64,000 nt of DNA from Deltaproteobacteria bacterium (GTDB taxonomy: Bacteria; Desulfobacterota; Desulfobaccia; Desulfobaccales; 0-14-0-80-60-11), in assembly GCA_021813445.1 (NCBI GenBank), contig JAKAKP010000140.1:1280-65279 (forward strand), written 5' to 3'. Below, piece after piece: positions 2,735 through 21,756 of the stretch. The notes beneath the pieces are model-generated. The model was not told the origin of the DNA. It was given only the letters and a program-made list of their open reading frames with translations, and did no database searches. Made by a program: the position numbers and the translations under genes. Each line of letters starts with the position of its first letter. The stretch's first letter is position 1.

Positions 2735-3358
2735 TCAATCCAGGCTTTTGACGATATTTAATAGATGCCCTAAAATTTCCCGAAAGCGTTTCAGGAGGTC
2801 GATGTAAATGGACCAGGCGTCGGCCTGGCCTGGACTATCCATCATGCGGGTTTCATGCTCCGCTTCATTACGGAAACAACTGTCTCTGAGCTTCTCCCCT
2901 TCGGTTAGGACGTAAGCCTTCAGGGAAGCATCATTAATATGGAAGATATCAACCAGGGTGCTCATAACTCCGGTCAGCCGGGAAAACAGATCGTTGATGA
3001 AAAACAAATCCTGATCCGCCAGGATGGCCCCGCGGTTGCCCTTACGGCGTATGGGGTCCGCGAGTTTAGCGATCTTGTCCGCCATTGCTTCCATCTGGAA
3101 GACTATCCCTTGATGTTTGAGTAGATCAGGCTTTTCCCCTTCGGTGCAATTCTTTAAGTTTATTTCTAATTTCTCAAAAATCGGGTCCAGGTCCAAAATG
3201 ATATCATCCCGCAGCCGGGCAATTTCTGCCAATTCTGCCTGACTGTGCCGGTTGAAGGCGTGCCGCGCCGCCACCAGCATGAGGCGCAGATTGTCCATCG
3301 TGGGCCATAACTCCTTCATCAGGAGCAAAAAGGCCTCCTTTTTCGATTCCCCTGTCAC
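2735..3358 (-). CDS. Cytoplasmic helical hypothetical protein (possibly PhoU/DUF47-like)
   Basis: 207-aa ORF with charged, helical composition and normal codon usage. Function is not established from the sequence. Confidence 0.5.
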   Translation of the reverse strand: MTGESKKEAFLLLMKELWPTMDNLRLMLVAARHAFNRHSQAELAEIARLRDDIILDLDPIFEKLEINLKNCTEGEKPDLLKHQGIVFQMEAMADKIAKLADPIRRKGNRGAILADQDLFFINDLFSRLTGVMSTLVDIFHINDASLKAYVLTEGEKLRDSCFRNEAEHETRMMDSPGQADAWSIYIDLLKRFREILGHLLNIVKSLD

Positions 3359-3719
3359 GGTGTCTCCTCATTATCCTGGAATAGTTGTTTTCGCGGCTGC
3401 TCCCGGTCAGGCTTTATCGCGCTGAGACTATTATAATACCTAAAGAGCCGTAAAAGTCCTCAGCGCCGCCCAGGTGTGAATTAATTTCTTCTTCCCGATT
3501 CCGTGGAAAAATGGGTAGTGGGTTCTTGCTTTGTCCAGGCAATGGCTGCAATAAATCCAGCTCCATATCTTCTATCATTGCCAGAGGTGGATCTGCAGAT
3601 GGACTTAGGGGTTGCATCTCCAACTATCGTTATTAATTTTTACCCAAGTTCTGCCGGCTCACATAGCCTGCAGTAAGTCTTTCTGCACACCATGAACCCC
3701 AACTTTTCAGGATGTAATC

Positions 3720-6656: not shown

Positions 6657-8750
6657 TTGCCGAATTATGGAGTGCAAGTTAAGTTGATGTCAGCCACTGA
6701 TGATCTTCGAAAATTTCCCTGGTATTTTATTCTGATATTCTGCATTCTCTCCCTGGGAATACTAACGACGGGATATTTATATTACAAGAACCAGGAGGGG
6801 TACATCAAGAAAGAAAAGCAGCAAGAACTTGCTGCCATTATTGCCCTGAAAGTGGAGCAGATTATCTCCTGGCGCCAGGAACGCCTGGATTATGCCAGCA
6901 CTATTATGGATGACCCCTTTTTCGCCATGCAGGTGATGGATTTTTTCCGGGGGAAACCCAAGCCTCTGCTCCGGAAACAGATTCTGGAGCGGCTGACCAC
7001 CCTGGCCACATATCAATATCGCAGCCTGACTTTAGTCGACCCCCAGGGGCATGTCAGATTGGCGGCGCCGGCCTCAGGGCGGGAGCTTAACCCTTACCTG
7101 CAATCCCTGGCGGCGCAGGCAATCCAGACCCAAAAAGTCATTTTTTCAGATCTGTATCTGGATGAAGACTCGAAGCCCAGGCTCTGCGTCCTCACGCCGC
7201 TCCTGGTCATGCAGGGGGACAAGAAGATTACCGTGGGCGTGACTCTGATGAGCATCGAACCCTATCAGTTTCTTTATCCTCTGTTGAAAGAATGGCCCAC
7301 CCCGAGTCTGACCGGAGAGACCGAGCTGGTCCGCCGGGAGGGCCAGGAAGTGGTGTTTCTCAATGAACTCCGGCATCAGAAGAACGTTCCCCTGCACCTG
7401 CGGTTGCCCCTGGATTCCCCCCACCTGCTGGAGGCCAGGGTCGCCAGGGGGCAAAGAGGCATTGTGGAGGGCCTGGATTATCGGGGAGTGCCGGTTATTG
7501 CCGCGGGAGGAGCCATTCCGGACTCCTCCTGGTTTATCATCGCCAAGATCGACGCCGGCGAAATTTATGCCCCGCTGAAAAAGCTGACCCATGAAGTCGT
7601 TTTTCTCCTGATTATCTTGATCGGCAGCGCCGGCCTCGGTGTGGCCTATTTCTCGCGGAATCAGCAAATCAGCTTCTACCGCCGGCAATATGAAGTGGAG
7701 CGGGAGCGCCGCGCCCTGGCGCAGCGTTATGAGTATCTCACCAGGTTTGCCAATGACATCATCCTGGTGGCGGACAGGAATCTACTGATTGTGGAAGCCA
7801 ACGACCGGGCGGCGGTGGCCTACGGCTATGAGCGCGCTGAACTCCTGAAGCTCCATCTCCTGGATTTATATCCGCCGGGGTCGGAACGGGTTCTGGATAC
7901 CCTGATACTGCATGGCAAAGAAACCAGCGGGCTGATTTTTGAAGCTATTCAACAAAGGAAAGATGGTACGACTTTTCCAGCGGAGGTCAGCCTGCGCCAA
8001 TTGGAGATCGAAGGGGAGGTGTTGTTTCAGGAAATCATCCGGGATATCACTGAGCGCCAACGTACCGAGGAGGTGCTGCAAGAATCGGCCAAGAACCTGC
8101 GCCACCTGGCCTCGCAGCTGCTGCGGGCCCAGGAAGACGAGCGGAAACGAATCTCCCGGGAATTGCATGATCAACTGGGACACGCCTTGCTGGCCTTGAA
8201 GCTGCAGATCGAAGCGGTGGCCACCAAACTGTCTCCGGCCCAGAGTACTCTTAAAACCGAGATGCATAAGATCTTGGGCTACATGGGCACTACCATAGAA
8301 GAGGTGCGCCGCCTTTATCTGGATCTCAGCCCTGGCGACCTGGAGGACTTGGGTCTCACCGCGGCCCTGCAATCGTTGGTGGAGGATTTTGCCGACCTCC
8401 AAAAGCATGCGAAATTTACGCTCGATCTGGATGACCTGGACGGCCTCTTTGCCTTGCCGGTGCAGACCGCGATCTACCGGGTGGTGCAAGAAGCTTTGAC
8501 GAATATCGGCAAACACGCCCAACCGCAGCACGTGTCGCTGCAGATCAAGCGGGACGGGCAAAATGTCTCTTTTCTGATTGCCGACGACGGCAAGGGCTTT
8601 GACCGTCATTCAAACACCGACAAGAAAACCTTGGGCCTCCTGACGATGGCAGAGCGGGTGAGAATCCTGGGGGGCTCTTTTGACTTATGGAGCCAAAAAG
8701 GGCACGGCACCAAGATCTCCTTTACCATTCCCATAACCGGAGAATCATGA
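6657..8750 (+). CDS. Sensor histidine kinase (periplasmic sensor domain, PAS, HisKA_3, HATPase_c; NarX/DegS type)
   Basis: Two TM helices flank a domain of about 270 aa, followed by a PAS domain. H-box RISRELHDQLGHALLALK and ATPase motifs ALTNIGKHA and DDGKGF are present. TTG start at 6657; an alternative ATG (MSATDD) lies at 6687. Confidence 0.9.
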   Translation: MPNYGVQVKLMSATDDLRKFPWYFILIFCILSLGILTTGYLYYKNQEGYIKKEKQQELAAIIALKVEQIISWRQERLDYASTIMDDPFFAMQVMDFFRGKPKPLLRKQILERLTTLATYQYRSLTLVDPQGHVRLAAPASGRELNPYLQSLAAQAIQTQKVIFSDLYLDEDSKPRLCVLTPLLVMQGDKKITVGVTLMSIEPYQFLYPLLKEWPTPSLTGETELVRREGQEVVFLNELRHQKNVPLHLRLPLDSPHLLEARVARGQRGIVEGLDYRGVPVIAAGGAIPDSSWFIIAKIDAGEIYAPLKKLTHEVVFLLIILIGSAGLGVAYFSRNQQISFYRRQYEVERERRALAQRYEYLTRFANDIILVADRNLLIVEANDRAAVAYGYERAELLKLHLLDLYPPGSERVLDTLILHGKETSGLIFEAIQQRKDGTTFPAEVSLRQLEIEGEVLFQEIIRDITERQRTEEVLQESAKNLRHLASQLLRAQEDERKRISRELHDQLGHALLALKLQIEAVATKLSPAQSTLKTEMHKILGYMGTTIEEVRRLYLDLSPGDLEDLGLTAALQSLVEDFADLQKHAKFTLDLDDLDGLFALPVQTAIYRVVQEALTNIGKHAQPQHVSLQIKRDGQNVSFLIADDGKGFDRHSNTDKKTLGLLTMAERVRILGGSFDLWSQKGHGTKISFTIPITGES

Positions 8751-9391
8751 GCATGGCTGGCTATACCATCGTCATCGCCGATGATCACGTGATGTTCCGT
8801 GAAGGAGTTAAACACATTATTGAGCAGAGCCCGGAGGTCTGCATCAGCGGTGAGGCCAATGACGGACTCGAACTGATGGATTTGTTGAAAAAGTCTCCCC
8901 CGGACCTGGTCGTTCTGGACATTTCCATGCCCAATCTGCGCGGCCTGGAAGCCATTAAAGAAATTAAGCGCGGCTACCCCCAGGTAAAAATCCTGGTCTT
9001 GACCATGCACAAAAAAAAGGAGTTCATCCGCCAAGCCCTGGCCGGCGGTGCCGATGGCTATTTGCTCAAGGAAGATGCCGGCGGCGAACTGATTCAGGCG
9101 GTGCAGGCCATCAGAAAAGGCGGCAAATATTTTTCTCCCCTGGTGGCCTCCTTGATGACCAGCCTGGTCCTGGAGCCGGCCAAGGCCGAAATCTTATCAA
9201 TCCGGGAAAGGGAGGTCCTAAAACTCCTGGCGGAAGGGAAAAAAACCGAGGAAATCGCCGCCATTCTGTACATCAGCCCCCATACCGTGCGCCGCCACCG
9301 CGCCAATATCATGGAAAAGCTGGAGATCAACAACTTGGCCGATCTGCTCAAGTATGCCATTTCCCACCACTATCTCGTTGACTTTTCTTAA
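8747..9391 (+). CDS. Response regulator, NarL/LuxR family (REC + LuxR HTH)
   Basis: MSMAGYTIVIADDH...VVLDISMP, with C-terminal LSIREREVLKLLAEGKKTEEIA...TVRRHRANIMEKL. The ATG at 8747 overlaps the kinase stop as ATGA (translational coupling). The ORF-track start at 8687 is an artefactual extension. Confidence 0.9.
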   Translation: MSMAGYTIVIADDHVMFREGVKHIIEQSPEVCISGEANDGLELMDLLKKSPPDLVVLDISMPNLRGLEAIKEIKRGYPQVKILVLTMHKKKEFIRQALAGGADGYLLKEDAGGELIQAVQAIRKGGKYFSPLVASLMTSLVLEPAKAEILSIREREVLKLLAEGKKTEEIAAILYISPHTVRRHRANIMEKLEINNLADLLKYAISHHYLVDFS

Positions 9392-9422
9392 AAGCCATTT
9401 CCAAACCTCGACTTCCCCTATT

Positions 9423-9494
9423 TGTCATTCTGAGCGCCGCGAAGAATCTCGTTTTTTCAAGGCGTTGAGATCCTTCACTGCGTTCAGGATGACA
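9423..9494. repeat. 72-nt hairpin repeat, family A (TGTCATTCTGAGCG...CGTTCAGGATGACA)
   Basis: Arms of about 28 nt form an imperfect inverted repeat. A second 72-nt copy lies at 26506-26577. It generates spurious HSERSEESR / FTAFRMT peptides in the ORF track. Confidence 0.8.
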
Positions 9495-9916
9495 AAAAAA
9501 GAAGGGTTTGAAATAGCTTGCAGGCTTGCCATCCGGCAATTGATCAAAATGATCATGAGAAAATGGTCAGCGCATGTATCGACTTCCCGCCCCACCCTGC
9601 CCATACTAAAAGCCGAATGAAAGATTTTTCGGTTTTATACCAAGTTCGTTTTTGCACGTGACAAAGCCTAAAGACCGGCGTGCATCGGCGGATTATCTTT
9701 AACCGCCGATAAACGCAGATGAACGCCGGCTGATTCTGGCGGTTTGTTGCGTGGCAATATGAATTTGGTATTACTTGGCCTGGAGTAAGGCCCGGGGAAT
9801 AAAACTTTTCCCAGGCCCAATAACATCAGGACCAGCGGCGTCGGGGCCGGGATGCCAGGGCCTTTGGCGGCATCCGCCTCAATGCCAGGATTTCGCCTAC
9901 AAGGGGGAAGGAAACA

Positions 9917-10147
9917 ATGAAGTCAATCGTTCTGCCAATGGTGCTAATGCTGGCTTTGGCGGGCTGTTCCGGCATGACTCCCACCGAACAACGGGTGCTG
10001 AGCGGCGGGGCCATGGGTGCCGCGGGTGGCGCTCTCATCGGCGCAGCCGCGGGTTCGCCCGCCATAGGTGCAGCAGTCGGTGGTGGTGCCGGCCTCCTGG
10101 GAGGGTTGGCCTACGACCAATATCAAAAATCCCAGGGGAGACCTTGA
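9917..10147 (+). CDS. Small glycine-zipper lipoprotein (OsmB/YMGG-like)
   Basis: 76 aa. Signal peptide with lipobox LAGC, followed by the GGAMGAAGGALIGAAAGSPAIGAAVGGGAGLLGG glycine zipper. Confidence 0.75.
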   Translation: MKSIVLPMVLMLALAGCSGMTPTEQRVLSGGAMGAAGGALIGAAAGSPAIGAAVGGGAGLLGGLAYDQYQKSQGRP

Positions 10148-10244
10148 GGCCTGGGACTGGAAGCCAGATGTTTGGGGTCCAGCGCCGAGACGCGGCATTT
10201 CTGAGGATTGGCTTTTAAGGGAGATTGATCTGCTCCTGAAAAGT

Positions 10245-10494
10245 TGTCGGTGGTCAGTGGTCAGTAAAAGACAAGGCATACCGGAGGATTTCTCCCTCTC
10301 CCCCCGCCCCAGGAGTCCATTGCTCCTAACCGGCAATTCGCGGGGGGAGAGGGCTGGGGTGAGGGGGGCAAACTTTTCATCCTTTGTGGGTGCGCCTCAG
10401 GCCCATGAGGAGCTGTTACGAAAAGTTCCTATAGGTGGCGCAGGCTTTCCAGCCTGCGCGCCATTGCCGGGCGGGCGAGGACGCCGCCCCTACG
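10245..10494. repeat. Cluster of several short palindromic repeat elements
   Basis: Contains GGTCAGTGGTCAGT. Also contains CCCTCTCCCC...GGGGGGAGAGGGCTGGGGTGAGGGGGG. GGTGGCGCAGGCTTTCCAGCCTGCGCGCC is related to 29844 and 45531. ...CGCCGCCCCTACGA is related to the family B cores. Confidence 0.5.
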
Positions 10495-10566
10495 ATTCTT
10501 TTCATAATTTATGGGCGGGCCATAGGCCCTTCGGCCGTACCCCCGGGAAATGGGGAGAGAATAACC

Positions 10567-11316
10567 ATGCATCCCTATAAGATCGTCCTGGCCGATGATC
10601 ACACGATATTTCGGCAAAGCGTCAGGAGAGTGGTGGAAGAGGTCCCCGGCCTGGAGATCGTGGGAGAGGCCGCCAGTGGGCATGAATTGTTGCTGCTTCT
10701 GCAACAGACTTCTCCCCAGTTGGTTATTCTTGATCTTTCCATGCCGGATTATGGAGGCATGGCAGCCCTTAAAGAAATGAAACGCCCCCATCCCCGGGTT
10801 AAGGTGTTAATCTTAAGCATGCACAAAACCCGGGGACATGTTTATCGGGCAATATCCATGCAGGTTCAAGGATACCTGCTCAAAGAAGATACTCATGAGG
10901 AACTGATTGCCGCGATAAAGCTAATCCGGAGTGGCGGCACCTATTTTTCGCCGCTATTGGCCGGACAGATTTCCGAGATCAACGTAAAAAAGCGCCTCAG
11001 GGATTTGCTATTTCAAGAAGATCCTTTGAGTAACCGGGAAGCGCAAATCCTTAGTTTTTTGGCGGAAGGCAAAACCAGCCAACAAATCGCGGACCTTCTA
11101 TCTCTCAGCATCAAAACCGTAAATACCCATCGCCTGAAGATCAAAAGAAAGTTGGACCTTGGGAAATCCATTGAGTTGATAAAATACGCCATTCTCAAAG
11201 GATACATCATGGTGGACCCCGTTGAATTCCCGGAAGCATTAAACAATCCACCTGCGGTTAACGAAAGGTCTTCTCCGAAAAACTCAGAAGTTACCAGTAA
11301 AACCTCCTCAGGTTGA
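10567..11316 (+). CDS. Orphan response regulator, NarL/LuxR family, with a C-terminal tail of about 35 aa
   Basis: MHPYKIVLADDH...LVILDLSMP, LuxR HTH LSNREAQILSFLAEGKTSQQIA. ATG at 10567; the upstream part of the track ORF runs through repeats. Confidence 0.85.
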   Translation: MHPYKIVLADDHTIFRQSVRRVVEEVPGLEIVGEAASGHELLLLLQQTSPQLVILDLSMPDYGGMAALKEMKRPHPRVKVLILSMHKTRGHVYRAISMQVQGYLLKEDTHEELIAAIKLIRSGGTYFSPLLAGQISEINVKKRLRDLLFQEDPLSNREAQILSFLAEGKTSQQIADLLSLSIKTVNTHRLKIKRKLDLGKSIELIKYAILKGYIMVDPVEFPEALNNPPAVNERSSPKNSEVTSKTSSG

Positions 11317-12231: not shown

Positions 12232-12912
12232 TCAATGTCCAGCTCCAAGTTTGCCCAGCGCCTTGGTAAGTTCCATGGCCACGCCCAGGCCCTGCCGGGC
12301 TTCTTTACTACCCATGGCGCTCAACATGCCCAAGGGGCCCAAGGGTTTGGCCTCCTCCAGGTGGATGGCCGCGGGGAGTTCCAGCAGGCGATTCATGAAG
12401 TCGATCATCTGGGGATCGGACAACTTTTTCAGCATGCTCAAGAGCAGCACAAAGGCGTCGCTCATGGTGGCAATTTCCTCGGGGTCGTAATGGGCCGCCA
12501 CCTTGGCGCGGACCTCCAGCATGGCGGCATAAGTGCGAAAAACCCCTTTGCGCTCCAGGTTATCCATGTAGTTGATGAGATTGGGAACGGCGCTTTTTAA
12601 TAAAGGCTCCATGCATTTCCACATCTCGGAGAGGTTCTCCAGGGTCTCCAGGGCCTGGGTGAGGTTGCGGACGCTGCGGAGTCCCTGTTTCAGCAGGGCG
12701 AAGAGGTCTTCCAGTTGGAAGCCGGTCTCCAGGGTCCCCAGTTCCTCCAGCAGGATTTTACAGGCTGAATTCATCAGGGGCGCGAGGTCGTTCTTCAACT
12801 CGGTCAGGCCCTGTTGAGACTTGACCAGGGTTTGTATCTGGCCCTCCATCCGGTCGAGCCTCTCCAAGATCAGTTCTTCTGTGCCAGGTTTCTTCTCATT
12901 CTTATTAGGCAT
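12232..12912 (-). CDS. DUF1641-domain protein
   Basis: Helical protein with repeated L..L..L segments, as in DUF1641. ATG at 12912 is preceded by GAGAGGAGA; a TTG at 12930 would overlap the flavoprotein stop. It lies immediately downstream of the FAD oxidoreductase, the usual partner of this family. Confidence 0.7.
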   Translation of the reverse strand: MPNKNEKKPGTEELILERLDRMEGQIQTLVKSQQGLTELKNDLAPLMNSACKILLEELGTLETGFQLEDLFALLKQGLRSVRNLTQALETLENLSEMWKCMEPLLKSAVPNLINYMDNLERKGVFRTYAAMLEVRAKVAAHYDPEEIATMSDAFVLLLSMLKKLSDPQMIDFMNRLLELPAAIHLEEAKPLGPLGMLSAMGSKEARQGLGVAMELTKALGKLGAGH

Positions 12913-12926
12913 GGCCGTCTCCTCTC

Positions 12927-14171
12927 TCAACCATAGACATGATAGACATGTCCCAGCATTTTACCGGCCATGAACATCTGGGGTTCCAGGGGCAGTTCTT
13001 TGCCTTTGAGCATCATGTTGAAGTAGACCCACTTAAACATCATCTTGCCCCAGTAGTTGAAATGGCTTTCGCCCAGAAGGGTGAAGGGCCCCAGGCCCGG
13101 GAAGGGATATTTGCCCGGCAAGGGTTCTACTTTGTAGTTGAAGTCAATGAGGCTGGCCTTTTCGTAGCCGGTGACGATGAAGCAGGTGGAGTGGCCGTCG
13201 AATTCCGGCAGGGGCTCCTGGCCGTCGATTTCCCGGAGCAGGTTTTCCACGATGATGTCCGATTCATAGTGGGCCACGGCCCCGGCCTTGGAGGTGGGCA
13301 CGTTGGTGGCGTCGCCCACGATGTACATGTTCTCGTATTTTTTGGATTTTAAGGTGCCGTGGTCAGTGTCGAGGTAACCCATGGGGTCGCCGATCTCGCT
13401 GTCGATGATGACCTGGGCTCCGAAGTTGGGCGGAATAGTCACCAGCAAATCGTAATTGACCTCGTCGCCCTTGGCGGAAGATATTATCTTCTTGGCGGGG
13501 TCGACTTCGGCGATATCGAAGTTCGGGGTGATCCTGATCTTCTTCTCTTCGCACAGCTTGGTCAAAGCTGCGGTGGCCACCGGCTTGGTGAAGGCCCCGG
13601 AGAGCGGGGTCACCAGTTCCAGTTCGATGTCGTCCCGGACCCCGTTGACCGTGAAAAACCAGTCGGCCATGAAGATGAACTCCAGGGGCGCCACCGGGCA
13701 TTTGATGGGCATTTCGGCAATATTGAGGACGATCTTGCCTTTTTTGAAGTATTTCCATCTCTTGTAAAGGGCGATGGCGCCATCCGGGGTATAGAAGTCG
13801 TGGATGTCGCCGTGCCAGTCGTCCTTCATGCCGTCGATTTCGCCAGGCATGATCCGGCAGCCGGTGGCTATCACCAGCCAGTCATAGTCAACCTGCCCCT
13901 TTTTGGTCTTGATCCGTTTCTTGACCGGGTCGATATTGGTGACTTCGTCCAACACGAAATCGATACCCGGGAGGACAAAATCCATCTTGGGTTTAATGCA
14001 GTCCTCGGCCTTGTAAACGCCGAAGGGGATGAAGAGCCAGCCCGGCTGATAGTGGTGCTGCCGGTCCCGGTCAATCACGGTAATCTTCCAGTCGTTGTCG
14101 AGCTTCTCTCGCATTTTCGTGGCTACCATGGTGCCACCGGCTCCATACCCCAAAATTACCAGTTTTTTCAT
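12927..14171 (-). CDS. NAD(P)/FAD-dependent oxidoreductase, sulfide:quinone oxidoreductase/NDH-2-like (Pyr_redox_2)
   Basis: 414 aa. N-terminal dinucleotide fold MKKLVILGYGAGG, then ...HHYQPGWLFIPFG..., and a second Rossmann fold KIVLNIAEMPIKCPVAPLEF, typical of SQR-type flavoproteins. Confidence 0.85.
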   Translation of the reverse strand: MKKLVILGYGAGGTMVATKMREKLDNDWKITVIDRDRQHHYQPGWLFIPFGVYKAEDCIKPKMDFVLPGIDFVLDEVTNIDPVKKRIKTKKGQVDYDWLVIATGCRIMPGEIDGMKDDWHGDIHDFYTPDGAIALYKRWKYFKKGKIVLNIAEMPIKCPVAPLEFIFMADWFFTVNGVRDDIELELVTPLSGAFTKPVATAALTKLCEEKKIRITPNFDIAEVDPAKKIISSAKGDEVNYDLLVTIPPNFGAQVIIDSEIGDPMGYLDTDHGTLKSKKYENMYIVGDATNVPTSKAGAVAHYESDIIVENLLREIDGQEPLPEFDGHSTCFIVTGYEKASLIDFNYKVEPLPGKYPFPGLGPFTLLGESHFNYWGKMMFKWVYFNMMLKGKELPLEPQMFMAGKMLGHVYHVYG

Positions 14172-14323
14172 AGACCTCGCCTTTCTTGTAATTTGATCCA
14201 GTTCCTCGGCAGGAATTGGAAGGCATTCCTGTACTTGAGATGGTTGGCCGCCAGGCCAACGTTTGGAAAACCTGCGTTAAGGGCAGACCTGCGGGTCCAC
14301 CTCGAGAGCGCCTCCTGAGGCTC

Positions 14324-15091
14324 TTACAAACCCTTTTTCTTCCAGTTGCGGGTCACATTGGTCAGGAAAAATTCTTTAACCAGACGGCGCCAGCCAAGCT
14401 GCGGAAAATGGCCATAGACATCGCCGACGAGCGCGCCGCCGGACGGCAAGGTTAATCCCACCGTGGTTTCCATGAGGTTCAGCAAGCGCCAGGATTCTTT
14501 GGCAATCCAGGCCTCGTTATTCTCTTTGGAAGAGAGGCTGGCCAAATTCTGCCGGAGATTGGTCGGTTTGACCTTGAACAGCCAGCCTTCGCCATAGGGA
14601 TCGCGATGGAGCAGACGGGGATTCTGACAAACCTCGGGATTGACTGCCGTGACTAGACCGTCCACCGGAGCCTCAAAGGAAGCCTTGTGCTCCTTTTTGA
14701 TCAGAGCCATGCAGATGTGATCCTGAAAAAAGACTGCGCCCACTTCGGGTAATCTCAGGGCGTCAGCCGGACCCAGTATCTTCTGGGAAAAGTCATCCAG
14801 CCCCACCCGCACTTCGCCGCTCTCTTCGAGCGCTACCCAGGCGTGGCCCCGGTGCAGATAATAGTCCTCGGGAGGGGCTTGTACCCCGAGGGCTTCCACC
14901 ATCCCCGGTTCAGGGTGGGGTTCGGGGGCTGGGCCACCTTCTTTCAGAGGGTGGTGGTCTACCCGCCAGACTGCCCCACATTTTTGACACACGCACTTAT
15001 ACTCTGACTGGGTGCCGTTCTTAGGGCCAGGAACCTCACAGACCAGCCAATGCCCGGCCATGGCCCCGCAATTCTTACAATCGAGTCTCAT
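14324..15091 (-). CDS. Zinc-ribbon / GcvH-fold protein with conserved C-terminal extension (paralog 1)
   Basis: N-terminal CKNCG...CQKCG ribbon. The core YYLHRGHAWV..VRVGLDDFSQKILGPADALRLPEVG...APVDGLVTAVN...DPYGEGWLFKV aligns with glycine-cleavage H proteins. An extra tail of about 80 aa ends in WKKK. RBS GGAGG. Confidence 0.8.
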   Translation of the reverse strand: MRLDCKNCGAMAGHWLVCEVPGPKNGTQSEYKCVCQKCGAVWRVDHHPLKEGGPAPEPHPEPGMVEALGVQAPPEDYYLHRGHAWVALEESGEVRVGLDDFSQKILGPADALRLPEVGAVFFQDHICMALIKKEHKASFEAPVDGLVTAVNPEVCQNPRLLHRDPYGEGWLFKVKPTNLRQNLASLSSKENNEAWIAKESWRLLNLMETTVGLTLPSGGALVGDVYGHFPQLGWRRLVKEFFLTNVTRNWKKKGL

Positions 15092-15136
15092 GTGATCAGT
15101 CCTCCACCAGGACGGATTTCCGCCCCGGACCTCCGG

Positions 15137-15751
15137 TTAACGTTTCTTCCAGTCCTTGATCAAGTTGGTTAAAAAGAACTCCTTAGCCAGACGCCGCCAG
15201 GTCAAACGGGGATAATGCCCGCAAACATCATCGAGGATGACCCCGCCCATGGGGAGAGCGGCTCCCACAGTGGTGCTGAGGATAAAAAGCAACCTCTGGG
15301 CCTCCTGTTCGATCCAGGTGACATTGGAATCACCGTAAAACAACTGGTCGAGATTTTGCGGCAGATTGGTGGGTTGGACCGTGAACAGCCAGCCTTCGCC
15401 ATAAGGATCGCCATGGATCAGGCCGGGGCTCTGCCGCGCCCGGGGATTGATGGAAGTGATAATGCCGTCCACCGGGGCTTCGATGGAGGCTTTGCGTCCT
15501 TCCCGGAACAGCGCCAGGCACACATGGTCCTGATAGTAGGTCTTGCCGATTTCGGGCAATTGCACTTCGTCCGCCGGCCCCAGGATCTTCTGGGAAAAGG
15601 CGTCCAAACCGACCCGCACCAGGCCCGAGTCTTCAGGCACCGCCCAGGTGTGGCCCCGGTGCAGATAATAAATATCGGTCGGCACTTGGAAGCCGTAGAC
15701 GTCCACAAGCTGATGCCTTGGGGCGCGGGTTTCGCAACTGGCACCGGTCAT
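15137..15751 (-). CDS. GcvH-fold protein with conserved C-terminal extension (paralog 2, no zinc ribbon)
   Basis: Same core and tail as paralog 1. ATG at 15751 has GGAGG 8 nt upstream; the track start at 15766 is a GTG. Confidence 0.8.
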   Translation of the reverse strand: MTGASCETRAPRHQLVDVYGFQVPTDIYYLHRGHTWAVPEDSGLVRVGLDAFSQKILGPADEVQLPEIGKTYYQDHVCLALFREGRKASIEAPVDGIITSINPRARQSPGLIHGDPYGEGWLFTVQPTNLPQNLDQLFYGDSNVTWIEQEAQRLLFILSTTVGAALPMGGVILDDVCGHYPRLTWRRLAKEFFLTNLIKDWKKR

Positions 15752-15811
15752 GACTTGGACCTCCACCTCAAGCCTTCCTCTGATCTGATCCCCACCTTGG
15801 CATGACGGCCA

Positions 15812-16559
15812 TCAGGATTTTTTCTTCCATTCCCGGGTCAGGCTGGTGAGAAGAAACTCCTGGACCAGGGGCCGCCAGCCCAACTGGGGATAATTTCCAT
15901 AGACGTCATCAATAATGGTGCCGCCATCCGGCCCGGTGACTCCCACTTCGCTTTCCATGAGATTGATTAAGCGATGGGACTCCTGATGCATCCAATCGGC
16001 CGTGGCGTCTCCGGAAAACAGGTTGGTCAAATTGCGCTGGAGGTTGATGGGCCAGACCTTGAACAGCCAGCCGGCGCCAAAAGGATCGTTATGGATCAGG
16101 CGGGGATTCTCACGCACCTTGGGATTGATTGCCGTAATGGCGCCATCCACCGGGGCGAGAAAGGAAGCCTTCCGGCCCTGTCTGACCAGGGAGAGGCAGA
16201 TGTGATCCTGATAGTACGTCTTGCCGAGATCTGGCAGCTTCACCTCGTCTGCGGGCCCGAAGATCTTCTGGGAAAAGGCGTCCAGTCCCACCCTCACTTC
16301 GCCGGTGTCTTCGAGCACGGCCCAGCTATGTCCCGGGTGCAGGTAACAGTCACTGGCGGGCACTCCAAAACCGAAGATTTCCACTTCCTGGTTATTCCTG
16401 CTCTTCATGTCTGCCATTCCTTCCTTAAAAAGGTTGTGTTTTTCGATGAACCAGGTTCTTCCCACATTTGCGGCAGATGCACTTGCCGAGGGGTTTAGTT
16501 TTGTCGTGATAAAAGATCTCACTCCGCCAAGGCCCGCATCTTTTGCAAAGGATTTCCAT
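15812..16559 (-). pseudogene. Zinc-ribbon / GcvH-fold paralog 3, split by a 1-nt frameshift (or two coupled ORFs)
   Basis: A 44-aa ribbon ORF (MEILCKRCG...CRKCGKNLVHRKTQPF*, 16559-16425) is followed by the GcvH-fold body in another frame. The frame of the body upstream of its first Met reads GRTWFIEKHNLFKEG, homologous to paralog 1 AVWRVDHHPLKEGG. AGGAGG RBS precedes 16559. Confidence 0.7.
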
Positions 16560-16656
16560 GCAACTGTCCTCCTGTAGGACTTGAGGTTTGCGGCTTTCCC
16601 ATCTCCTCTCCGTCATCTTTGCCAGGAATGTCTCATCCGCAGCCCAGCTTCCTTTA

Positions 16657-16673
16657 GGCAAATTACGGGCCAA
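16657..16673 (-). promoter_or_regulatory. Sigma-54 (-24/-12) promoter candidate for the GcvH-like/flavoprotein operon
   Basis: The minus strand reads TTGGCCCGTAATTTGCC, against the consensus TGGCACG-N4-TTGCW. GG and GC are separated by exactly 10 nt. It lies about 100 nt upstream of the ATG at 16559. Confidence 0.6.
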
Positions 16674-16833
16674 ACCTGCGATGCCAGGGTAACCATCTAT
16701 AATTACAGCAATATTTATGATCACTCCCCATGCTTTCCCATCATCCGCCAGCGGCAAGGCGAGGTTTTGGTGAAAATTCGCACAGAGGCTCGGCTAAAAT
16801 TCGCTAACCCATTGATAATTATGGATGATTATT

Positions 16834-16850
16834 TGTACGAAAATCGCACA
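16834..16850. promoter_or_regulatory. 17-bp imperfect palindrome TGTACGAAAATCGCACA (putative activator-binding UAS, copy 1)
   Basis: TGTACGA-N3-TCGCACA. The 20-nt core GTACGAAAATCGCACAAAGA is identical to copy 2. It lies about 165 nt upstream of the sigma-54 promoter. Confidence 0.5.
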
Positions 16851-16908
16851 AAGATAGGAGGTAAGATGCCCGAATAAGGGTATCATATTGTTTTGATTAA
16901 TTATTAAT

Positions 16909-16925
16909 CGTACGAAAATCGCACA
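16909..16925. promoter_or_regulatory. Palindrome CGTACGAAAATCGCACA (putative UAS, copy 2)
   Basis: Exact 20-nt repeat of copy 1, 75 nt further upstream. Confidence 0.5.
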
Positions 16926-16993
16926 AAGAAGATTGGAGCGAGCCTGAGAACGGGCGTGAGCCGGGTCTTAGTGACAGTGGAGAGGCGGGGTGG

Positions 16994-17599
16994 TTACAGG
17001 TCTTGGAGGCTTTGAAAGTAATCGTCCAGCAGGATCAGACAATATTTGCACAGTCCGGTTTTCTTTTGGTCCAATTTTTCCAGGTTGGCGGCAAAGCCCA
17101 TGAGACAGCCGTCTTGGCGGCAGTGGGGGAGGCCGAAGGTATGGCCCAATTCATGTAAGCTTAACTTGATGAGCCGGCTTAATAAGAGGGATCTGGACGG
17201 TTTGACTTCCCCGGCGCCGGCGCCGGGACGAAAGGTTGAAATAATGGCGGCTTTGCCGTCCAACTGGGCCTCGCCAAAGACAAAAGTGAATATGGGAATG
17301 TAAAGATCCGCCGCGGTTATCCCCAGGATTCGAAAAGGATCTTCTCCGTGCTCGTCATTGAGCAGATAATCCAGGAGTTGGGTGGAATAATACTGATTAC
17401 GCCCTGGGTGATGGGTCTGGGGGGGCAGAGGTCTGGTGGGCAAAATCTTTACCGGCAGGAAAAGAAAATCGGCAATGGCCTGGCGTAAATCAGGCAAGAT
17501 CAGGTGATCCACCGGGGCCAGGGGAACCAGGCCCAGAAACGGACGGTATGACATATAGTGAACCGCTCTACAGCCCGGAAGCCGCAGGCTGAGCCCCAA
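16994..17599 (-). CDS. Archaemetzincin-family zinc metalloprotease (Amz-like)
   Basis: HELGHTFGLPHCRQDGCLM...CKYC matches the archaemetzincin signature HExxHxxGx3Cx4CxM...CxxC. The TTG start abuts the regulator stop; an alternative ATG lies at 17554. Confidence 0.85.
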   Translation of the reverse strand: MGLSLRLPGCRAVHYMSYRPFLGLVPLAPVDHLILPDLRQAIADFLFLPVKILPTRPLPPQTHHPGRNQYYSTQLLDYLLNDEHGEDPFRILGITAADLYIPIFTFVFGEAQLDGKAAIISTFRPGAGAGEVKPSRSLLLSRLIKLSLHELGHTFGLPHCRQDGCLMGFAANLEKLDQKKTGLCKYCLILLDDYFQSLQDL

Positions 17600-18949
17600 T
17601 CAGGGCGTTAAGCCATACTTTTTCATTTTTTCATAGAGAGTGCCGCGATTGATCCGAAGGACCTTGGCCGTATTGGAGATGTGACCACCCTGTGCGGTCA
17701 GGACTAAAGCGATGTGGCGGCGCTCCATTTCCCCCAAGGAGAGGTTGGCCACTTCCTCGGTGCCCTCCGAAGTCAGCGCGAAGGGCAGGTCACCGGGTTT
17801 GATCTGCCGGCCTTTGCCCACCACCACCGCCCGTTCGATGGCGTTTTGCAATTCCCGGATGTTTCCCGGCCAGGAATAACGCCGCATCGCCGCCAGAGAC
17901 TCCAGATGAATGCCATCAATCTTTTTGCCGGTCTCGGTGGCATAGCGTCGCAGGAAGTGCTTGGCCAGCAGGGGAATATCTTCCTGCCGCTCCCGCAAGG
18001 GAGGGACCTGCAAGTGAATGACGTTGAGGCGGTAGTAGAGATCCTGGCGGAAAGTCCGGTTGCGGATGCTTTCCTGCAGGTCCTGATGCGTGGCGGCAAT
18101 GACCCGGAAGTCGCTGGTGATCGCCGTGGTTCCTCCAACCCGGCTGAATTCGTGGGTTTCCAAGACTCGCAGAAGATCGATCTGCATCTTCATGGAGATG
18201 TCCCCCACTTCATCCAGAAAGAGGGTGCCGGTATTGGCCATTTCCAACCGGCCTTTCTTGGTGAATTTGGCATCGGTGAAGGCGCCTTTCTCGTGGCCGA
18301 AGAGCTCGCTCTCCAGGAGATGTTCCGTAAAGGCGCCGCAGTTGATGGCAATGAAGGGATTGTAACCGCGAGGGCTATGGGTGTGAATGGTCCGGGCCAC
18401 CAACTCCTTGCCGGTGCCGGTCTCCCCGGTAATCAACACGGTGGCGTCGCTTTGGGCCACCTTGACGATGGTCTCAAAAAGACTGAGCATCGGGGGGGAT
18501 TGGCCCACCAGGTTGTCAAAGCGGCTGATGGACGCTATCTGGTCCTTGAGAATCAAGTTTTCCATGGCCAGGGTCTGAATTTGCACCAGTTTCTCGATGG
18601 TGAGGCTGAGCTCATCCAACTCGAAAGGCTTCAGGAGATAATCGTTGGCCCCCAGCTTCATGGCCTCCACCGCGTCCTGAATGGCGCCGTGGGCCGTCAT
18701 CATCACTACAGAGGAATCGGGATCTTCCTCTTTCAGTTTCTTGAGCAGGGTGATCCCATCCATTCCCGGCATTTTGACGTCCACCAGCATGATGTCGTAG
18801 TGGCGTTCTTTGACCTTGGCCAGGGCCTCCAGGCCGCCGGCCGCAGTTTCCACCTCATAGCCATCCTGCTTTAGCCAATCACAGAAGGCTTCCCTGATGC
18901 TCAACTCATCATCCACTACCATGATGCAGATTTTTTTATGAGGCAACAT
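17600..18949 (-). CDS. Sigma-54-dependent response regulator (NtrC family: REC, AAA+, Fis-type HTH)
   Basis: REC (MVVDDE...MLVDVKMPGMDG), Walker A GETGTGKE, sigma-54 contact loop ESELFGHEKGAFTDA and a C-terminal HTH ...NTAKVLRINRGTLYEKMKKYG. The ATG at 18949 (MLPHKK) overlaps the kinase 3' end by 14 nt. Confidence 0.95.
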   Translation of the reverse strand: MLPHKKICIMVVDDELSIREAFCDWLKQDGYEVETAAGGLEALAKVKERHYDIMLVDVKMPGMDGITLLKKLKEEDPDSSVVMMTAHGAIQDAVEAMKLGANDYLLKPFELDELSLTIEKLVQIQTLAMENLILKDQIASISRFDNLVGQSPPMLSLFETIVKVAQSDATVLITGETGTGKELVARTIHTHSPRGYNPFIAINCGAFTEHLLESELFGHEKGAFTDAKFTKKGRLEMANTGTLFLDEVGDISMKMQIDLLRVLETHEFSRVGGTTAITSDFRVIAATHQDLQESIRNRTFRQDLYYRLNVIHLQVPPLRERQEDIPLLAKHFLRRYATETGKKIDGIHLESLAAMRRYSWPGNIRELQNAIERAVVVGKGRQIKPGDLPFALTSEGTEEVANLSLGEMERRHIALVLTAQGGHISNTAKVLRINRGTLYEKMKKYGLTP

Positions 18950-21227
18950 GGTCTTCCCCCGATTTTTGGGCGGGCAGACGTATGCTGAAGCAAGTACCCC
19001 GCCCCACCACACTGTGAACTCGAATGACCCCCTGGTGGTCCCCGATTATGCCCTGCACCACGGCCAGACCCAGCCCCGCGCCCAGGCCACCCGGCTTGGT
19101 GGTATAGAAGGGTTCAAAAATCTGGGCAAACTTGTCTCGGGGTATGCCCCCGCCGGTGTCGGCGATGAGCACCAGGGCCTCCCGATGTCTGGTATTTCTG
19201 GTGACAACGGTTAAGGTGCCCTCTTTGGGCATGGCATCCCGGGCATTGATCAGCAGGTTCAAAAAGACCTGCTTCATCTTCGCCGGATCGGCCCGCACCG
19301 GCAAGAGATCGGGAGCATAACGCGTTTCCACCGTGATTCCTTGCAACCGCATCTGGAATTCGGTTAACGCTAAAGTCTCCCCCAATAAGTTGTTGAGATC
19401 CACCGCCTTGAATTCCGGCTTGGCGCGGCGGGAAAAAGGCAGCAAGCTGGAAACGGTTTTGCTCACCCGTAATATTTCTTTGTAGATCAACTCCGTATGT
19501 TTTTTCATCATGCCCATGGCCTCCTGGTCGGGAGACTCCGCATCCATGATGCGTTTGATCATCCTGGCGGAACTGAGAATACCGGTCAACGGATTGTTGA
19601 TCTCGTGGACGACGCTGGCGGATAATTTTCCCAAAGAGGCGATCTTGTCTTCGTCCATCATGCGGGTGCGGCTGATTTCATGGGTGATATCCCGGGACAG
19701 ATCGACCACTCCCCGGATTTGTCCTTCCTCATCGAACAGCGGGTGGCAAACCACGTGTAGATAACTTTCCCGGCCATCCTTGTCAAAGTGGATGTGGATG
19801 GCGGAAGCGGCCTTGCCGGTGGCTACGGTCTTTTTTAAGGGACAGGGATGGTCAGGGCTGGAGCAAGGCTGCTGCGAGCGGTGGGATACTTCATAACAAT
19901 GCCGCCCCACCACGTCTTCGCGTTTTAGACCTATCATTTCCAGCAGCGCCCGGTTGACCTCGACAATGCGATAATCGAGATCAATGACCATCATATGGTC
20001 CTTGATGCCGTTGACGATGGTTTCCAGAAAGGCCTTCTCCTTGATGGCCTGCCGCAGCAGCTCCCGGGTTTCGGCTTGCGATCTTTGCAGAGCTTCTTCC
20101 AACTGCTTCCGGGCGGTAATGTCCGTGATGACCTCCACCACCCGTTTTTGGGTGGCTTCCGGAGGGAATAAAGGCGACATGGTGATTTCGTCGACCCGTA
20201 TCATTCCCTCGGGACTGGCATGCCACTGACAGACCTGGACGGTTTCGCAGTTTTCGAGGACGCGGGGCATAGGACAGGTCAAGCCTTTCCGGTCACAAGG
20301 CTCATCGATCTGATGCAGCACCTCATAACAAGGCCTGCCGATAACCTCTTCCAACTTTTTTTCAAAGCGGGCCAAGAAGGTGCGATTGGCTTCATCCACT
20401 ACATAATTGGGGAGTAAGACGAGCACCGGATCAGGCAGGTGGTCAAAAATCTTTTGGAACCGGCTGCGCTGTCCGGCCAGCTTAATTTCGCTTTCCACCT
20501 TGCAGCGCAGACGGTCTCCATTCCTCTGCAACAATTCCCAGAAAAGCCGGGCCTTAATATGATCGATAATCTGGGTGTGGGGGTGCCGGCGCTGGATAAT
20601 GCCCTCCCGCACCAGCGGGTCGCCGGTAAGTTCCAGGATCAAGTCCGGGGCCTTTTCCAGCAAAGAGGAATAGTCGCTAAAGGTGGAGATGCCCAGACGC
20701 TCAGCCAAGGCTAACCCCGGGGCCCGGGAATTGGAATCAGCCACCCCGACAATCTCGATCTTGCGCCGGTATCCCGGCTTCCTGGTGATCAGCTGCAGCA
20801 CCTCTTGACCTGCCCTGCCAGCGCCGACAATGGCGATTTTCAAGGGAGAGACGTCCTGAATCGACAGGTCCACAGGAATGAGGTCCCAAAAGGCCTCCAG
20901 AGTAAATTCCGGCCGGTCCGCACTCAGAACCGTTAACCGTTTGGGAGCTTGCTCATAAAGCTGTTGAGCTACTTCGGGACGCCCAGTGGCGTCGACAATG
21001 ATGTCCACTTCCGGGAGATGGAATAAGTCAGCCAGATCCAGGGTCACAAAGAGGTTAAAGCGATAGGCATAGATTATCCCGGGAGCTTCCGGGTTAATGT
21101 CCGCCACCGCCACGATCCGCAAGGATTGCTCTTGTTTTCGGGGAGGCACCAAGGCTTCCAGGATCGCCATGCCTTGCCGCCCCGCGCCGACAATAGCCAG
21201 GTTATATGACTTTTTGTCAGGATTCAT
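18936..21227 (-). CDS. Histidine kinase with two N-terminal Rossmann-like modules and two Cys-rich PAS domains
   Basis: YNLAIVGAGRQG and LKIAIVGAGRAG (GxGxxG) lie in two modules of about 130 aa. Two PAS domains each carry CYEVxH-x5-PC-x6/7-CP. H-box SASVVHEINNPLTGI, then HATPase (DTGGGIP, GLGAGLGLAVV). Start MNPDKK at 21227. Confidence 0.9.
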   Translation of the reverse strand: MNPDKKSYNLAIVGAGRQGMAILEALVPPRKQEQSLRIVAVADINPEAPGIIYAYRFNLFVTLDLADLFHLPEVDIIVDATGRPEVAQQLYEQAPKRLTVLSADRPEFTLEAFWDLIPVDLSIQDVSPLKIAIVGAGRAGQEVLQLITRKPGYRRKIEIVGVADSNSRAPGLALAERLGISTFSDYSSLLEKAPDLILELTGDPLVREGIIQRRHPHTQIIDHIKARLFWELLQRNGDRLRCKVESEIKLAGQRSRFQKIFDHLPDPVLVLLPNYVVDEANRTFLARFEKKLEEVIGRPCYEVLHQIDEPCDRKGLTCPMPRVLENCETVQVCQWHASPEGMIRVDEITMSPLFPPEATQKRVVEVITDITARKQLEEALQRSQAETRELLRQAIKEKAFLETIVNGIKDHMMVIDLDYRIVEVNRALLEMIGLKREDVVGRHCYEVSHRSQQPCSSPDHPCPLKKTVATGKAASAIHIHFDKDGRESYLHVVCHPLFDEEGQIRGVVDLSRDITHEISRTRMMDEDKIASLGKLSASVVHEINNPLTGILSSARMIKRIMDAESPDQEAMGMMKKHTELIYKEILRVSKTVSSLLPFSRRAKPEFKAVDLNNLLGETLALTEFQMRLQGITVETRYAPDLLPVRADPAKMKQVFLNLLINARDAMPKEGTLTVVTRNTRHREALVLIADTGGGIPRDKFAQIFEPFYTTKPGGLGAGLGLAVVQGIIGDHQGVIRVHSVVGRGTCFSIRLPAQKSGEDHVAS

Positions 21228-21287
21228 GAAGAACTCCCAAAACCGGATAACGCCTCTGGTGCCAGCCACGGGGCCGCTGCTACCCCT

Positions 21288-21304
21288 TGTACGATAATCG
21301 CACA
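21288..21304. promoter_or_regulatory. Palindrome TGTACGATAATCGCACA (copy 3 of the UAS-like motif) upstream of the kinase gene
   Basis: 16/17 identical to copy 1, 61 nt upstream of the kinase ATG. Confidence 0.45.
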
Positions 21305-21756
21305 AATAAGCAAGCGCCATTTGGCATTAGCTTAACACGAATCTGCAAACCATGCCATTTTTTGATTAAAAAATGAACATCGCTGCCATCAGATCAGTAA
21401 GGGAGGGGTAGGCGAGTGTGTCTGTGAGGGGGGGGACCGGAAAAAATTTTTTCTAATACTGCTTAGAAGCTAGCGAAAACCTGCCTTTCTTTTTATTATT
21501 TCAAACAGTTATCAGTTGCGCGAGGTGTTCCGCCAATCTGTGGGCCGCTGGATCGAATCCGGCAAGGCGCGCCAGTTTAGCAAAATGAACAGCCCCCCGG
21601 CAGTCACGCCAAGTTTGGAGTTGAGTCGGAGGCAAGTCAAGCCGGAAATCCTCGAGGATCATTGGGAAGCCAGGAGCTCTGGGCTGACCTGGCCCCAACT
21701 CAAACTCAAGTTCTGGGATGATCCTGGGAACCAGGTAGGTTGTTCAACCAGACATC

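Follow-up and report, generated by a model that had tools for sequence, protein, structure and literature searches.

What do a histidine kinase, an NtrC-type activator and an archaemetzincin control when their genes stand next to three tandem genes for proteins with the fold of the glycine-cleavage H-protein (GcvH), a flavoprotein of the sulfide:quinone reductase (SQR) type and a DUF1641 protein? This combination was found on the minus strand of a 64,000-nt stretch of DNA (contig JAKAKP010000140.1 of assembly GCA_021813445.1, hereafter the window) from a Deltaproteobacteria bacterium of the Desulfobaccales, of the sulfate-reducer type. The window matches contigs of two metagenome-assembled genomes of this order, GCA_027404775.1 and GCA_027404805.1. 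An earlier note on this DNA, made from the letters and a list of open reading frames (ORFs), had described it as a self-contained sigma-54 unit in two blocks, one regulatory and the other an output block of carrier proteins and a flavoprotein. Profile searches with Pfam and NCBIfam and motif scans recovered its genes, the -24/-12 promoter and the palindromes, with small corrections (Table 1). In answer to the question, a two-component/sigma-54 switch very probably has the GcvH-like operon as its direct and conserved target. A wider composite model, in which this switch is redox-responsive and drives a GcvH-like/SQR/DUF1641 operon linked to menaquinone, is given a probability of about 45%. The parts are all of known kinds; their combination and the extended, lysine-displaced GcvH-like family are new. 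Literature searches on GcvH together with Hdr, sigma-54 or archaemetzincin gave no description of the system, the family, its regulation or the pairing with SQR/DUF1641 or Hdr, which agrees with the initial impression that no characterised system has this composition.

The regulatory block and its conserved target

The conservation of the gene neighbourhood was followed through the GTDB species representatives by a scan with an alignment of the GcvH-like proteins, which gave 79 loci, in the Desulfobaccales and, at 35-45% identity, in the Desulfobacterales and Syntrophobacterales. Neighbours were called by tblastn with the window proteins and by ORF clustering, the activator being counted within 6 kb. 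The GcvH-like genes were accompanied by an NtrC-type activator in 41 of these loci, by the kinase in 43 and by an archaemetzincin in 34, and 46 of the loci, those flanked by 5 kb or more on each side, gave 30, 32 and 23, respectively. Kinase, activator and GcvH-like genes therefore form the conserved core, in most cases together with the archaemetzincin. Regulatory block and GcvH-like genes thus co-occur widely, and the flanks beyond the kinase-to-DUF1641 block vary between loci. The full module is also present in L007, a locus of a metagenome-assembled genome assigned to Desulfobacca acetoxidans.

The near-consensus -24/-12 element noticed between the two blocks was recovered, and its counterparts accompany the GcvH-like genes throughout. 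In nearly all of the ~75 loci, a TGGC[AC]C-N5-TTGC element precedes the GcvH-like genes, 10-110 nt 5' of the first one (46 assigned by naive ORF calls, with about a dozen more preceding GcvH-like genes that the caller had missed), and it is kept down to 35% protein identity. Similarly, the repeated 17-bp palindromes, including the copy before the kinase gene, were found again (3 matches in 64 kb against 0.01 expected by chance) and were joined by a degenerate copy. The exact palindrome recurs in the closest loci only, as expected if each activator co-evolves with its site. Relaxing it to TGT-N11-ACA exposed conserved sites, with 4.56 per kb upstream of the promoters compared with 0.17 per kb in the background. 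These sites keep fixed offsets across loci, at -114/-115, -179 and -212; the window has them at -112, -178 and -253, of which the first two correspond to conserved positions. The palindrome ~60 nt before the kinase ATG suggests autoregulation. A further candidate sigma-54 promoter 5' of the kinase gene, TGGCATGGTTTGCA (21344-21357, minus strand), was rejected on its GG-to-GC spacing, which is 2 nt too short, and is probably not such a promoter. Overall, the conservation of promoter and sites across related loci supports the self-contained sigma-54 regulatory unit.

The kinase has Pfam matches to NAD_binding_3 (residues 45-125) and GFO_IDH_MocA (residues 160-228), followed by two PAS domains, HisKA and HATPase, in agreement with the two Rossmann-like modules and two PAS domains seen initially. 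It is a predicted cytoplasmic, soluble sensor, and its Rossmann modules look NAD(H)-binding. Both PAS domains carry a motif CYEV[SF]H-x5-PC-x6-CP (residues ~331-350 and ~475-494 in the numbering of a 794-aa ORF), which suggests a set of ligands for a metal, heme or Fe-S center; nearly every Desulfobaccales kinase of the module has CYEVxH..PC..CP in each of its two PAS domains. The Rossmann modules are confined to the Desulfobaccales; in the Desulfobacterales, the kinase has a single PAS domain behind an N-terminus without assignment. What is conserved for sensing is therefore the Cys/His PAS domain, to which the Desulfobaccales kinases have plausibly added NAD(H) sensing as a lineage-specific feature.

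The activator, whose start overlaps the end of the kinase gene by 14 nt as had been noted, consists of Response_reg, Sigma54_activat (6.6e-70) and HTH_8 domains and has the Walker A motif GETGTGK. At residue 243 the canonical sigma-54 contact loop GAFTGA is replaced by GAFTDA, a variant shared by 30 of 33 orthologous activators of the module (loci L006-L084). Its best NCBIfam matches are AtoC, NtrC and ZraR. The pair resembles AtoS/AtoC, ZraS/ZraR and NtrB/NtrC in domain architecture, upstream palindromes and the -24/-12 promoter, but it differs from them in staying under every equivalog cutoff, in its soluble Rossmann/Cys-His-PAS kinase, in the GAFTDA loop and in the archaemetzincin encoded in the same operon. 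This regulatory logic, i.e., Rossmann/Cys-PAS kinase, GAFTDA activator and TGT-N11-ACA sites at fixed offsets, is directly testable.

The archaemetzincin matches Pfam Peptidase_M54 (7.8e-21; 75.4 bits, cutoff 24.4) and reaches 132.6 bits with NCBIfam archmetzin, under the cutoff of 145. Its translation reads HELGHTFGLPHC...CLM...CKYC, and HELGHTFGLPHCRQDGCLM...CKYC in it shows the complete zinc signature HExxHxxGxxxC...CxxC; written out in full, the M54 archaemetzincin signature is HExxHxxGxxxC...CxxxxC.M...CxxC. The gene stands beside the activator gene as described earlier, but the gap of 1 nt between them probably does not hold: the ATG at 17554, 45 nt past the activator stop, is the most likely start, being backed by orthologues and gene callers over the TTG at 17599. 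The best 120 matches in the homologue searches with the archaemetzincin and with the DUF1641 protein were all close Desulfobaccales relatives. We know of no organism in which the function of an archaemetzincin is known, and its place in a two-component operon with a defined regulon offers a genetic handle on this function.

The GcvH-like family and its redox partners

The three tandem paralogs (55-58% identical as proteins and 68-73% as DNA) match Pfam GCV_H with E-values of 1e-17 to 1e-21. The AlphaFold2 (AF2) model of paralog 3 has a predicted local distance difference test score (pLDDT) of 83.9, with residues 77-176 above 90, and Foldseek matched it to GcvH structures with target TM-scores of 0.89-0.93 and a root-mean-square deviation of 1.4-2.3 Å. 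Judged by this model, the GcvH barrel-sandwich fold is genuine, and three GcvH-fold paralogs in tandem had been described correctly. A family-specific C-terminal helical domain (helices 189-211 and 225-249) is added to the fold. Pfam matches and fold might also belong to canonical H-proteins of glycine cleavage or one-carbon metabolism. This explanation is practically untenable, since all three paralogs stay under the NCBIfam GcvH cutoffs (54-71 bits against 115.85 for TIGR00527 and 61-74 against 117 for NF002270), the lipoyl-lysine is displaced, the C-terminal domain and a zinc ribbon are extra, and no gcvT, gcvP or lpd was present in the window block or in the 79 related loci. It is the low scores, the Gly/Glu tip and the shifted, clade-specific lysine that set the GcvH-like proteins apart from canonical H-proteins.

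The position of the lipoyl-lysine (K65 of Escherichia coli counted from Met1, in ESVKA) aligns without gaps with Gly/Glu134. A conserved lysine, Lys136, follows 1-2 residues later (+2 in the gapless alignment, +1 by HMMER), and in the AF2 model it lies at the start of the returning strand, which spans residues 135-140. This lysine varies little, if at all, in the Desulfobaccales proteins of the short, zinc-ribbon and C-extension types (67 sequences). It is variable in a second GcvH-like class with N-terminal Cys4 modules and absent from all Desulfobacterales loci. Among representatives of the extended family, it stands at its position (-5) in only 19 of 127 domains, and a lysine anywhere from -7 to -5 is found in 46 of 127. 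BPL_LplA_LipB and radical-SAM genes were not enriched among 149 neighbouring ORFs. Cys127 was considered as a persulfide carrier and rejected, since several members have Phe in its place; no cysteine is invariant among the GcvH-like proteins. The displaced and clade-specific lysine, the change of Cys127 to Phe and the lack of ligase neighbours make a family-wide prosthetic-group mechanism unlikely, and the role of swinging-arm carriers, originally suggested by the fold, is not sustained.

It might still be that the lysine-bearing members are true carriers, with a lipoyl or other group on Lys136, and act as dithiol/disulfide or sulfane carriers that are oxidised by the SQR-type enzyme and reduced by Hdr-like complexes, as LbpA does for sHdr. 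Besides the near-invariance of the lysine in the 67 sequences, the three tandem copies, which resemble repeated carrier domains, the linkage of the family to HdrB/CCG and SQR-type thiol:disulfide enzymes and the precedent itself are in line with such a role. In the sHdr-LbpA systems of Hyphomicrobium denitrificans and others (PMC6067878), GcvH-fold proteins, often as several paralogs, are likewise tied to Hdr-like complexes, and the sister loci of the present module carry HdrA, HdrB, HdrC, MvhD and GcvH-like/HdrC fusions. However, LbpA has a canonical lipoyl-lysine and is accompanied by lipoate ligase and LipS genes, whereas here the lysine is displaced or absent and no ligase is nearby. The GcvH-like family further differs in its C-terminal helical domain, an N-terminus with sometimes a zinc ribbon or Cys4 module, the sigma-54 two-component control and the archaemetzincin, and the partner in the window is an SQR and not Hdr. 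With Gly/Glu at the hairpin tip, the lysine missing in most of the extended family and scores under the GcvH cutoffs, true carriers are very doubtful.

The sister loci indicate which enzymes the GcvH-like proteins work with. There, the GcvH-like genes follow operons of GltD-HdrA fusion, MvhD, FrhB-like, HdrA, HdrC and HdrB genes, and in several loci the gene order predicts their co-transcription after HdrB; in other loci they stand beside formate dehydrogenase, NuoF-like or MetF/MetV genes. A GcvH-like/HdrC fusion is present in three independent assemblies (L037, 7855-8946; L041, 7830-8921; L063). A profile search of 1.84 billion representatives gave 174 clusters at E <= 1e-30, which include fusions of the GcvH-like domain to MvhD and a Molydop_binding barrel (P0366, P0369), of three GcvH-like repeats to a GlcD-like flavoprotein and an HdrD-like CCG module (P0378), and to a 2x[4Fe-4S] ferredoxin (P0420); the last two proteins lack the lysine. 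These Rosetta-stone fusions place the GcvH-like domain inside the Hdr/CCG-type electron-transfer machinery and, together with the SQR pairing, indicate a partner or adaptor role for thiol/disulfide-type redox enzymes. To our knowledge, the physiological substrates of HdrABC/MvhD/CCG complexes in non-methanogens are largely unknown, and a GcvH-fold family fused to or co-transcribed with them represents a concrete candidate partner protein.

The same loci bear on a further explanation, in which the GcvH-like proteins and the archaemetzincin are parts of the signalling itself (feedback modulators or protease-processed regulators) and the redox enzymes are separately controlled cargo. Indeed, the universally conserved set is limited to the GcvH-like genes with the kinase, the activator and, as a rule, the archaemetzincin, whereas the neighbouring enzymes vary; the archaemetzincin belongs to the kinase/activator operon, and the second GcvH-like class with its N-terminal Cys4 modules looks sensor-like. 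The fusions to HdrC, MvhD, CCG and ferredoxin favour a place within redox complexes instead, and the GcvH-like genes are co-transcribed after HdrB in several loci and share an operon with SQR and DUF1641 in the window. Signalling components are therefore quite unlikely, and the adaptor role is retained below.

In Streptococcus pyogenes, GcvH-L is lipoylated and ADP-ribosylated. Its structure (PDB 5a35) gives a match with E 7.7e-6, and the SirTM/macrodomain oxidative-stress operon to which it belongs is comparable to the module as a stress/redox operon with a GcvH-fold protein outside glycine cleavage, but no sirtuin, macrodomain or LplA2 genes are present here.

Proteins of the second GcvH-like class mentioned above are ~300 aa long and begin with one Cys4 module or two (CxWMxxGVxxFKxC...C..C), for which Pfam has no match. 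Absent from the window, it is located between paralog 3 and SQR in L006-L009 and L086, at 9431-10516 and 10612-11538 of L066, and it is the only class in the Desulfobacterales loci. A subclass of ~310 aa has an extra C-terminal extension of ~100 aa (…RTSEDxxFRxxL…LSxEAxxAILxGDLxWLNEHIG…; P0077, P0101, L024:9932-10885, L018, L027, L030, L031, L059). It usually adjoins HdrA-like genes, with no kinase/activator pair nearby and the sigma-54 promoter still there. The GcvH-like pair of the Desulfobacterales loci has as its neighbour either a rubrerythrin gene or one for an OmpA/glycine-zipper lipoprotein (L066, L069 and L080, ~1 kb upstream of the GcvH-like genes; L074, L079, L081 and L084), and universal stress protein genes are also enriched among the neighbours.

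The SQR-type flavoprotein, the DUF1641 protein and a composite model

The flavoprotein reached 672.7 bits (cutoff 525; residues 2-404) with NCBIfam NF049943, "type III sulfide quinone reductase, selenoprotein subtype". Of its earlier description as an SQR/NDH-2-like FAD oxidoreductase, the SQR type stood, and the generic label gives way to type III SQR specifically. It has an N-terminal FAD motif ILGYGAGG (GxGxxG) and aligns over its full length with human SQOR (7e-50), and its C159 (IKCPVAP) and C331 (HSTCF), invariant in 13 loci, align with the catalytic cysteines of the latter ("PVKCAGAP" and "YTSCPLVTGY"). Despite matching a selenoprotein model, the enzyme is the Cys version; selenocysteine was rejected, as there are no in-frame stops in the 13 loci and Cys occupies every candidate position. 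Across these loci the SQR is 86-96% identical, compared with 60-80% for the neighbouring genes. It may be regarded as a type III SQR-type enzyme with putative sulfide-dependent quinone reduction. Type III SQRs, known from Caldivirga maquilingensis, Methylacidiphilum and cable bacteria, are experimentally sulfide:quinone reductases, as cited in PMC10205796 and PMC13047784. The window SQR passes the type III NCBIfam model and shares with them an N-terminus without signal peptide-like features and a predicted location at the cytoplasmic face, its C159/C331 standing against Cys159/Cys339 of the cable bacteria. Unlike them, it belongs to a sigma-54 operon, in which three GcvH-like genes precede its gene and DUF1641 comes after it.

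The locus could then be an ordinary sulfide-handling operon, whose SQR oxidises self-produced or external sulfide to sulfane sulfur with menaquinone, whose Cys-rich PAS domains sense sulfide or polysulfide, and whose GcvH-like proteins are sulfane-sulfur handling or acceptor proteins, or irrelevant to the chemistry. The activity of other type III SQRs and the presence of both catalytic cysteines are consistent with that, and so is the requirement of human SQOR, the nearest solved relative, for a sulfane acceptor. Control of sqr by sigma-54 has a precedent in FisR of Cupriavidus pinatubonensis, a one-component, sulfane-sensing sigma-54 activator of sqr-pdo; unlike FisR, the module has a kinase/response-regulator pair, for which the GcvH-like genes and not the SQR are the conserved target. 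Moreover, the same regulatory unit controls GcvH-like genes in at least 60 SQR-less loci with Hdr, formate dehydrogenase or MetFV, so a sulfide-specific signal is unlikely. The lack of an invariant cysteine makes persulfide carriage by the GcvH-like proteins impossible without a cofactor, and no rhodanese, TusA, DsrE or persulfide dioxygenase genes were found in the block. Sulfide handling of this ordinary kind is thus considered unlikely.

The DUF1641 protein has the PF07849 domain at residues 190-227 (1.2e-9; 38.3 bits, cutoff 21), which forms a C-terminal head, and the prediction for the protein is all-helical. The earlier statement that the function of DUF1641 is unassigned is outdated, because HucM, ForE and Ncp are quinone-transporting scaffolds (PMC13524794, PMC8808070). 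ForE is needed for the menaquinone binding and the formate:menadione activity of ForC (PMC8808070), Ncp makes lipid-filled, quinone-transporting tubes with the NDH-2 of Bacillus subtilis, and HucM plays the equivalent role in quinone transport with the hydrogenase Huc (PMC13524794). Ignicoccus co-induces a flavoprotein together with a DUF1641 protein (PMC3149612). In PMC13524794, SQR serves as an outgroup only, and its pairing with DUF1641 is therefore not described there. As in Ndh-Ncp, ForCE and Huc/HucM, the DUF1641 gene in the window follows directly 3' of the gene for a quinone-reducing dehydrogenase, and NDH-2 and SQR are sister flavoprotein families. The differences are the partner, here a type III SQR, the host, which belongs to the Desulfobacterota and not to the Bacillota or Actinobacteria, and the lack of detectable similarity to HucM, ForE and Ncp outside the 38-aa domain, the complex being here predicted from the genes.

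The gap of 14 nt between the flavoprotein stop and the DUF1641 gene is within the 15 nt given earlier. No terminator was detected between paralog 3 and the SQR gene, and a strong terminator-like hairpin lies 3' of the DUF1641 gene. Of the 13 GTDB loci with an SQR, 12 have DUF1641 next to it, and in the remaining one (L007) the contig ends inside the SQR gene; L085 and L086 have the pair as well. Every inspected member of the SQR/DUF1641 clade adjoins GcvH-like genes. By analogy with the known scaffolds, the DUF1641 protein is a candidate quinone conduit and membrane-docking partner of the flavoprotein, and the odds are slightly better than even that the two act as a quinone-coupled unit.

In the composite model, the genes between the promoter (16672) and the terminator (12050) would form one operon under a redox-responsive two-component/sigma-54 switch. 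The soluble kinase would respond through its Rossmann and Cys/His PAS domains and phosphorylate the NtrC-type activator. The latter would bind the TGT-N11-ACA sites at about -112, -178 and -253 and open the -24/-12 promoter; autoregulation would come from the site 5' of the kinase gene. The DUF1641 partner, translationally adjacent to the SQR, might give this flavoprotein, with its intact Cys159/Cys331 redox pair, access to menaquinone at the cytoplasmic membrane face, as in Ndh-Ncp, ForCE and Huc. The GcvH-fold proteins would serve as partner or adaptor subunits of the SQR in the window and of HdrABC/MvhD/CCG complexes in the sister loci, where they may couple or target thiol/disulfide-type enzymes rather than carry lipoate. 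The net effect would be an inducible electron path that links the menaquinone pool with a sulfide/sulfane-thiol or Hdr-linked pool in the cytoplasm.

A number of points weigh against this model. SQR is present in only 13 and DUF1641 in only 12 of the 79 GcvH-like loci; the pair is one of several alternative accessory cargos outside the conserved core. The idea of the two blocks as one unit is thereby upheld for the regulators with the GcvH-like genes and not for SQR and DUF1641. Furthermore, in loci of the L011-L022 type SQR and DUF1641 are encoded divergently from the GcvH-like gene, and a search for a sigma-54 promoter of the pair gave none, so that co-regulation is certain for the window-type arrangement only. 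The SQR retains amphipathic helices at its C-terminus that are homologues of the human SQOR membrane anchor, and DUF1641 may therefore be dispensable for reaching the membrane. The AF2 model of the DUF1641 monomer was unusable (pLDDT 46), and its profile gave only chance matches to PDB sequences, so that no relative with a solved structure was detected. As a mechanism for the GcvH-like proteins, "adaptor" says little, and the invariant lysine of the window clade hints at some further chemistry. The model does not account for the archaemetzincin, and any function proposed for it or for the GcvH-like proteins is weakly supported. Finally, the whole model is a prediction from sequence and modelled structures.

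A bolder version can be formulated, in which the extended GcvH-like family is a hitherto unrecognised class of dedicated partners or carriers of bacterial Hdr-, MvhD-, CCG- and SQR-type enzymes, the Lys-type clade bears a lysine-linked thiol cofactor, SQR and DUF1641 act as a carrier:menaquinone oxidoreductase, and the archaemetzincin is a processing or demodifying enzyme. Such a system is a long shot; if true, the Lys-type GcvH-like proteins would be the long-sought protein "heterodisulfide equivalent" of the HdrABC-like bifurcating complexes of non-methanogens. As for the composite model itself, three loose ends of anaerobic bioenergetics would converge in one conserved, inducible module, and the conserved SQR-DUF1641 pair would carry the scaffold principle of NDH-2, formate dehydrogenase and Huc into sulfur metabolism and the Desulfobacterota.

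Gene calls and flanking features

Table 1. Coordinates of the genes and regulatory elements of the module in the window.
Feature	Position	Strand	Remarks
Palindrome TGTGCGATTATCGTACA	21304-21288	minus	candidate autoregulatory site, ~60 nt 5' of kinase ATG
Kinase gene	18936-21227	minus	763-aa gene call; Pfam domains
NtrC-type activator gene	17600-18949	minus	start overlaps kinase 3' end by 14 nt
Archaemetzincin gene	16994-17554 (alternative start 17599)	minus	Pfam Peptidase_M54
Candidate upstream activator site TGTGCGATTTTCGTACG	16925-16909	minus	253 nt 5' of -24 element
Candidate upstream activator site TGTGCGATTTTCGTACA	16850-16834	minus	178 nt 5' of -24 element; offset conserved across loci
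Degenerate site TGTGCGAATTTTCACCA	16784-16768	minus	112 nt 5' of -24 element; matches conserved -114 position
Sigma-54 promoter TGGCCCGTAATTTGCC	16672-16657	minus	right GG-to-GC spacing
Zinc-ribbon ORF, 44 aa	16425-16559	minus	frameshifted N-terminus of paralog 1
GcvH-like paralog 1	15812-16417	minus	GcvH barrel and C-terminal helical extension; Lys in RQGRKAS
GcvH-like paralog 2	15137-15751 (alternative start 15766)	minus	without zinc ribbon
GcvH-like paralog 3	14324-15091	minus	N-terminal zinc ribbon fused
Type III SQR-type flavoprotein	12927-14171	minus	C159 and C331 catalytic
DUF1641 (Pfam "HMP") protein	12232-12912	minus	begins 14 nt past flavoprotein stop
Intrinsic-terminator-like hairpin and T run	12072-12050	minus	operon end

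An Rfam scan of 11.5-22.5 kb gave no match, and nothing relevant to the module was found in the remainder of the window. Directly downstream of the operon terminator, genes for a PAS/HisKA_3 kinase and two LuxR-type response regulators (6657-11316, plus strand) make up an unrelated second two-component set, whose synteny is not kept in other loci.

The output block had been drawn from 16559 to 12232; its genes are present, but the ORF at 16559 is only the remnant of a zinc ribbon. Likewise, of the zinc ribbon attributed to the three paralogs only that of paralog 3 stood, paralog 2 having none and that of paralog 1 being cut off by a frameshift. The latter is caused near 16466 by one extra G in TGTGGGAAG, which puts the ribbon out of frame with paralog 1, and in the orthologues of L007, L008, P0035 and P0039 the ribbon is fused in frame. 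An identical frameshift is found in three assemblies, as the result of a genuine mutation or of a homopolymer error common to them. A Shine-Dalgarno-like AGGAAGGA followed by an ATG would permit the synthesis of a ribbon-less paralog 1. In the minimal SQR loci (L011-L022), the only GcvH-like partner is of the paralog 2 type. A few kb from the SQR-type loci (L011-L017, ~300-3700), ammonium transporter and PII genes have near-consensus sigma-54 promoters of their own and probably belong to an unrelated nitrogen regulon.

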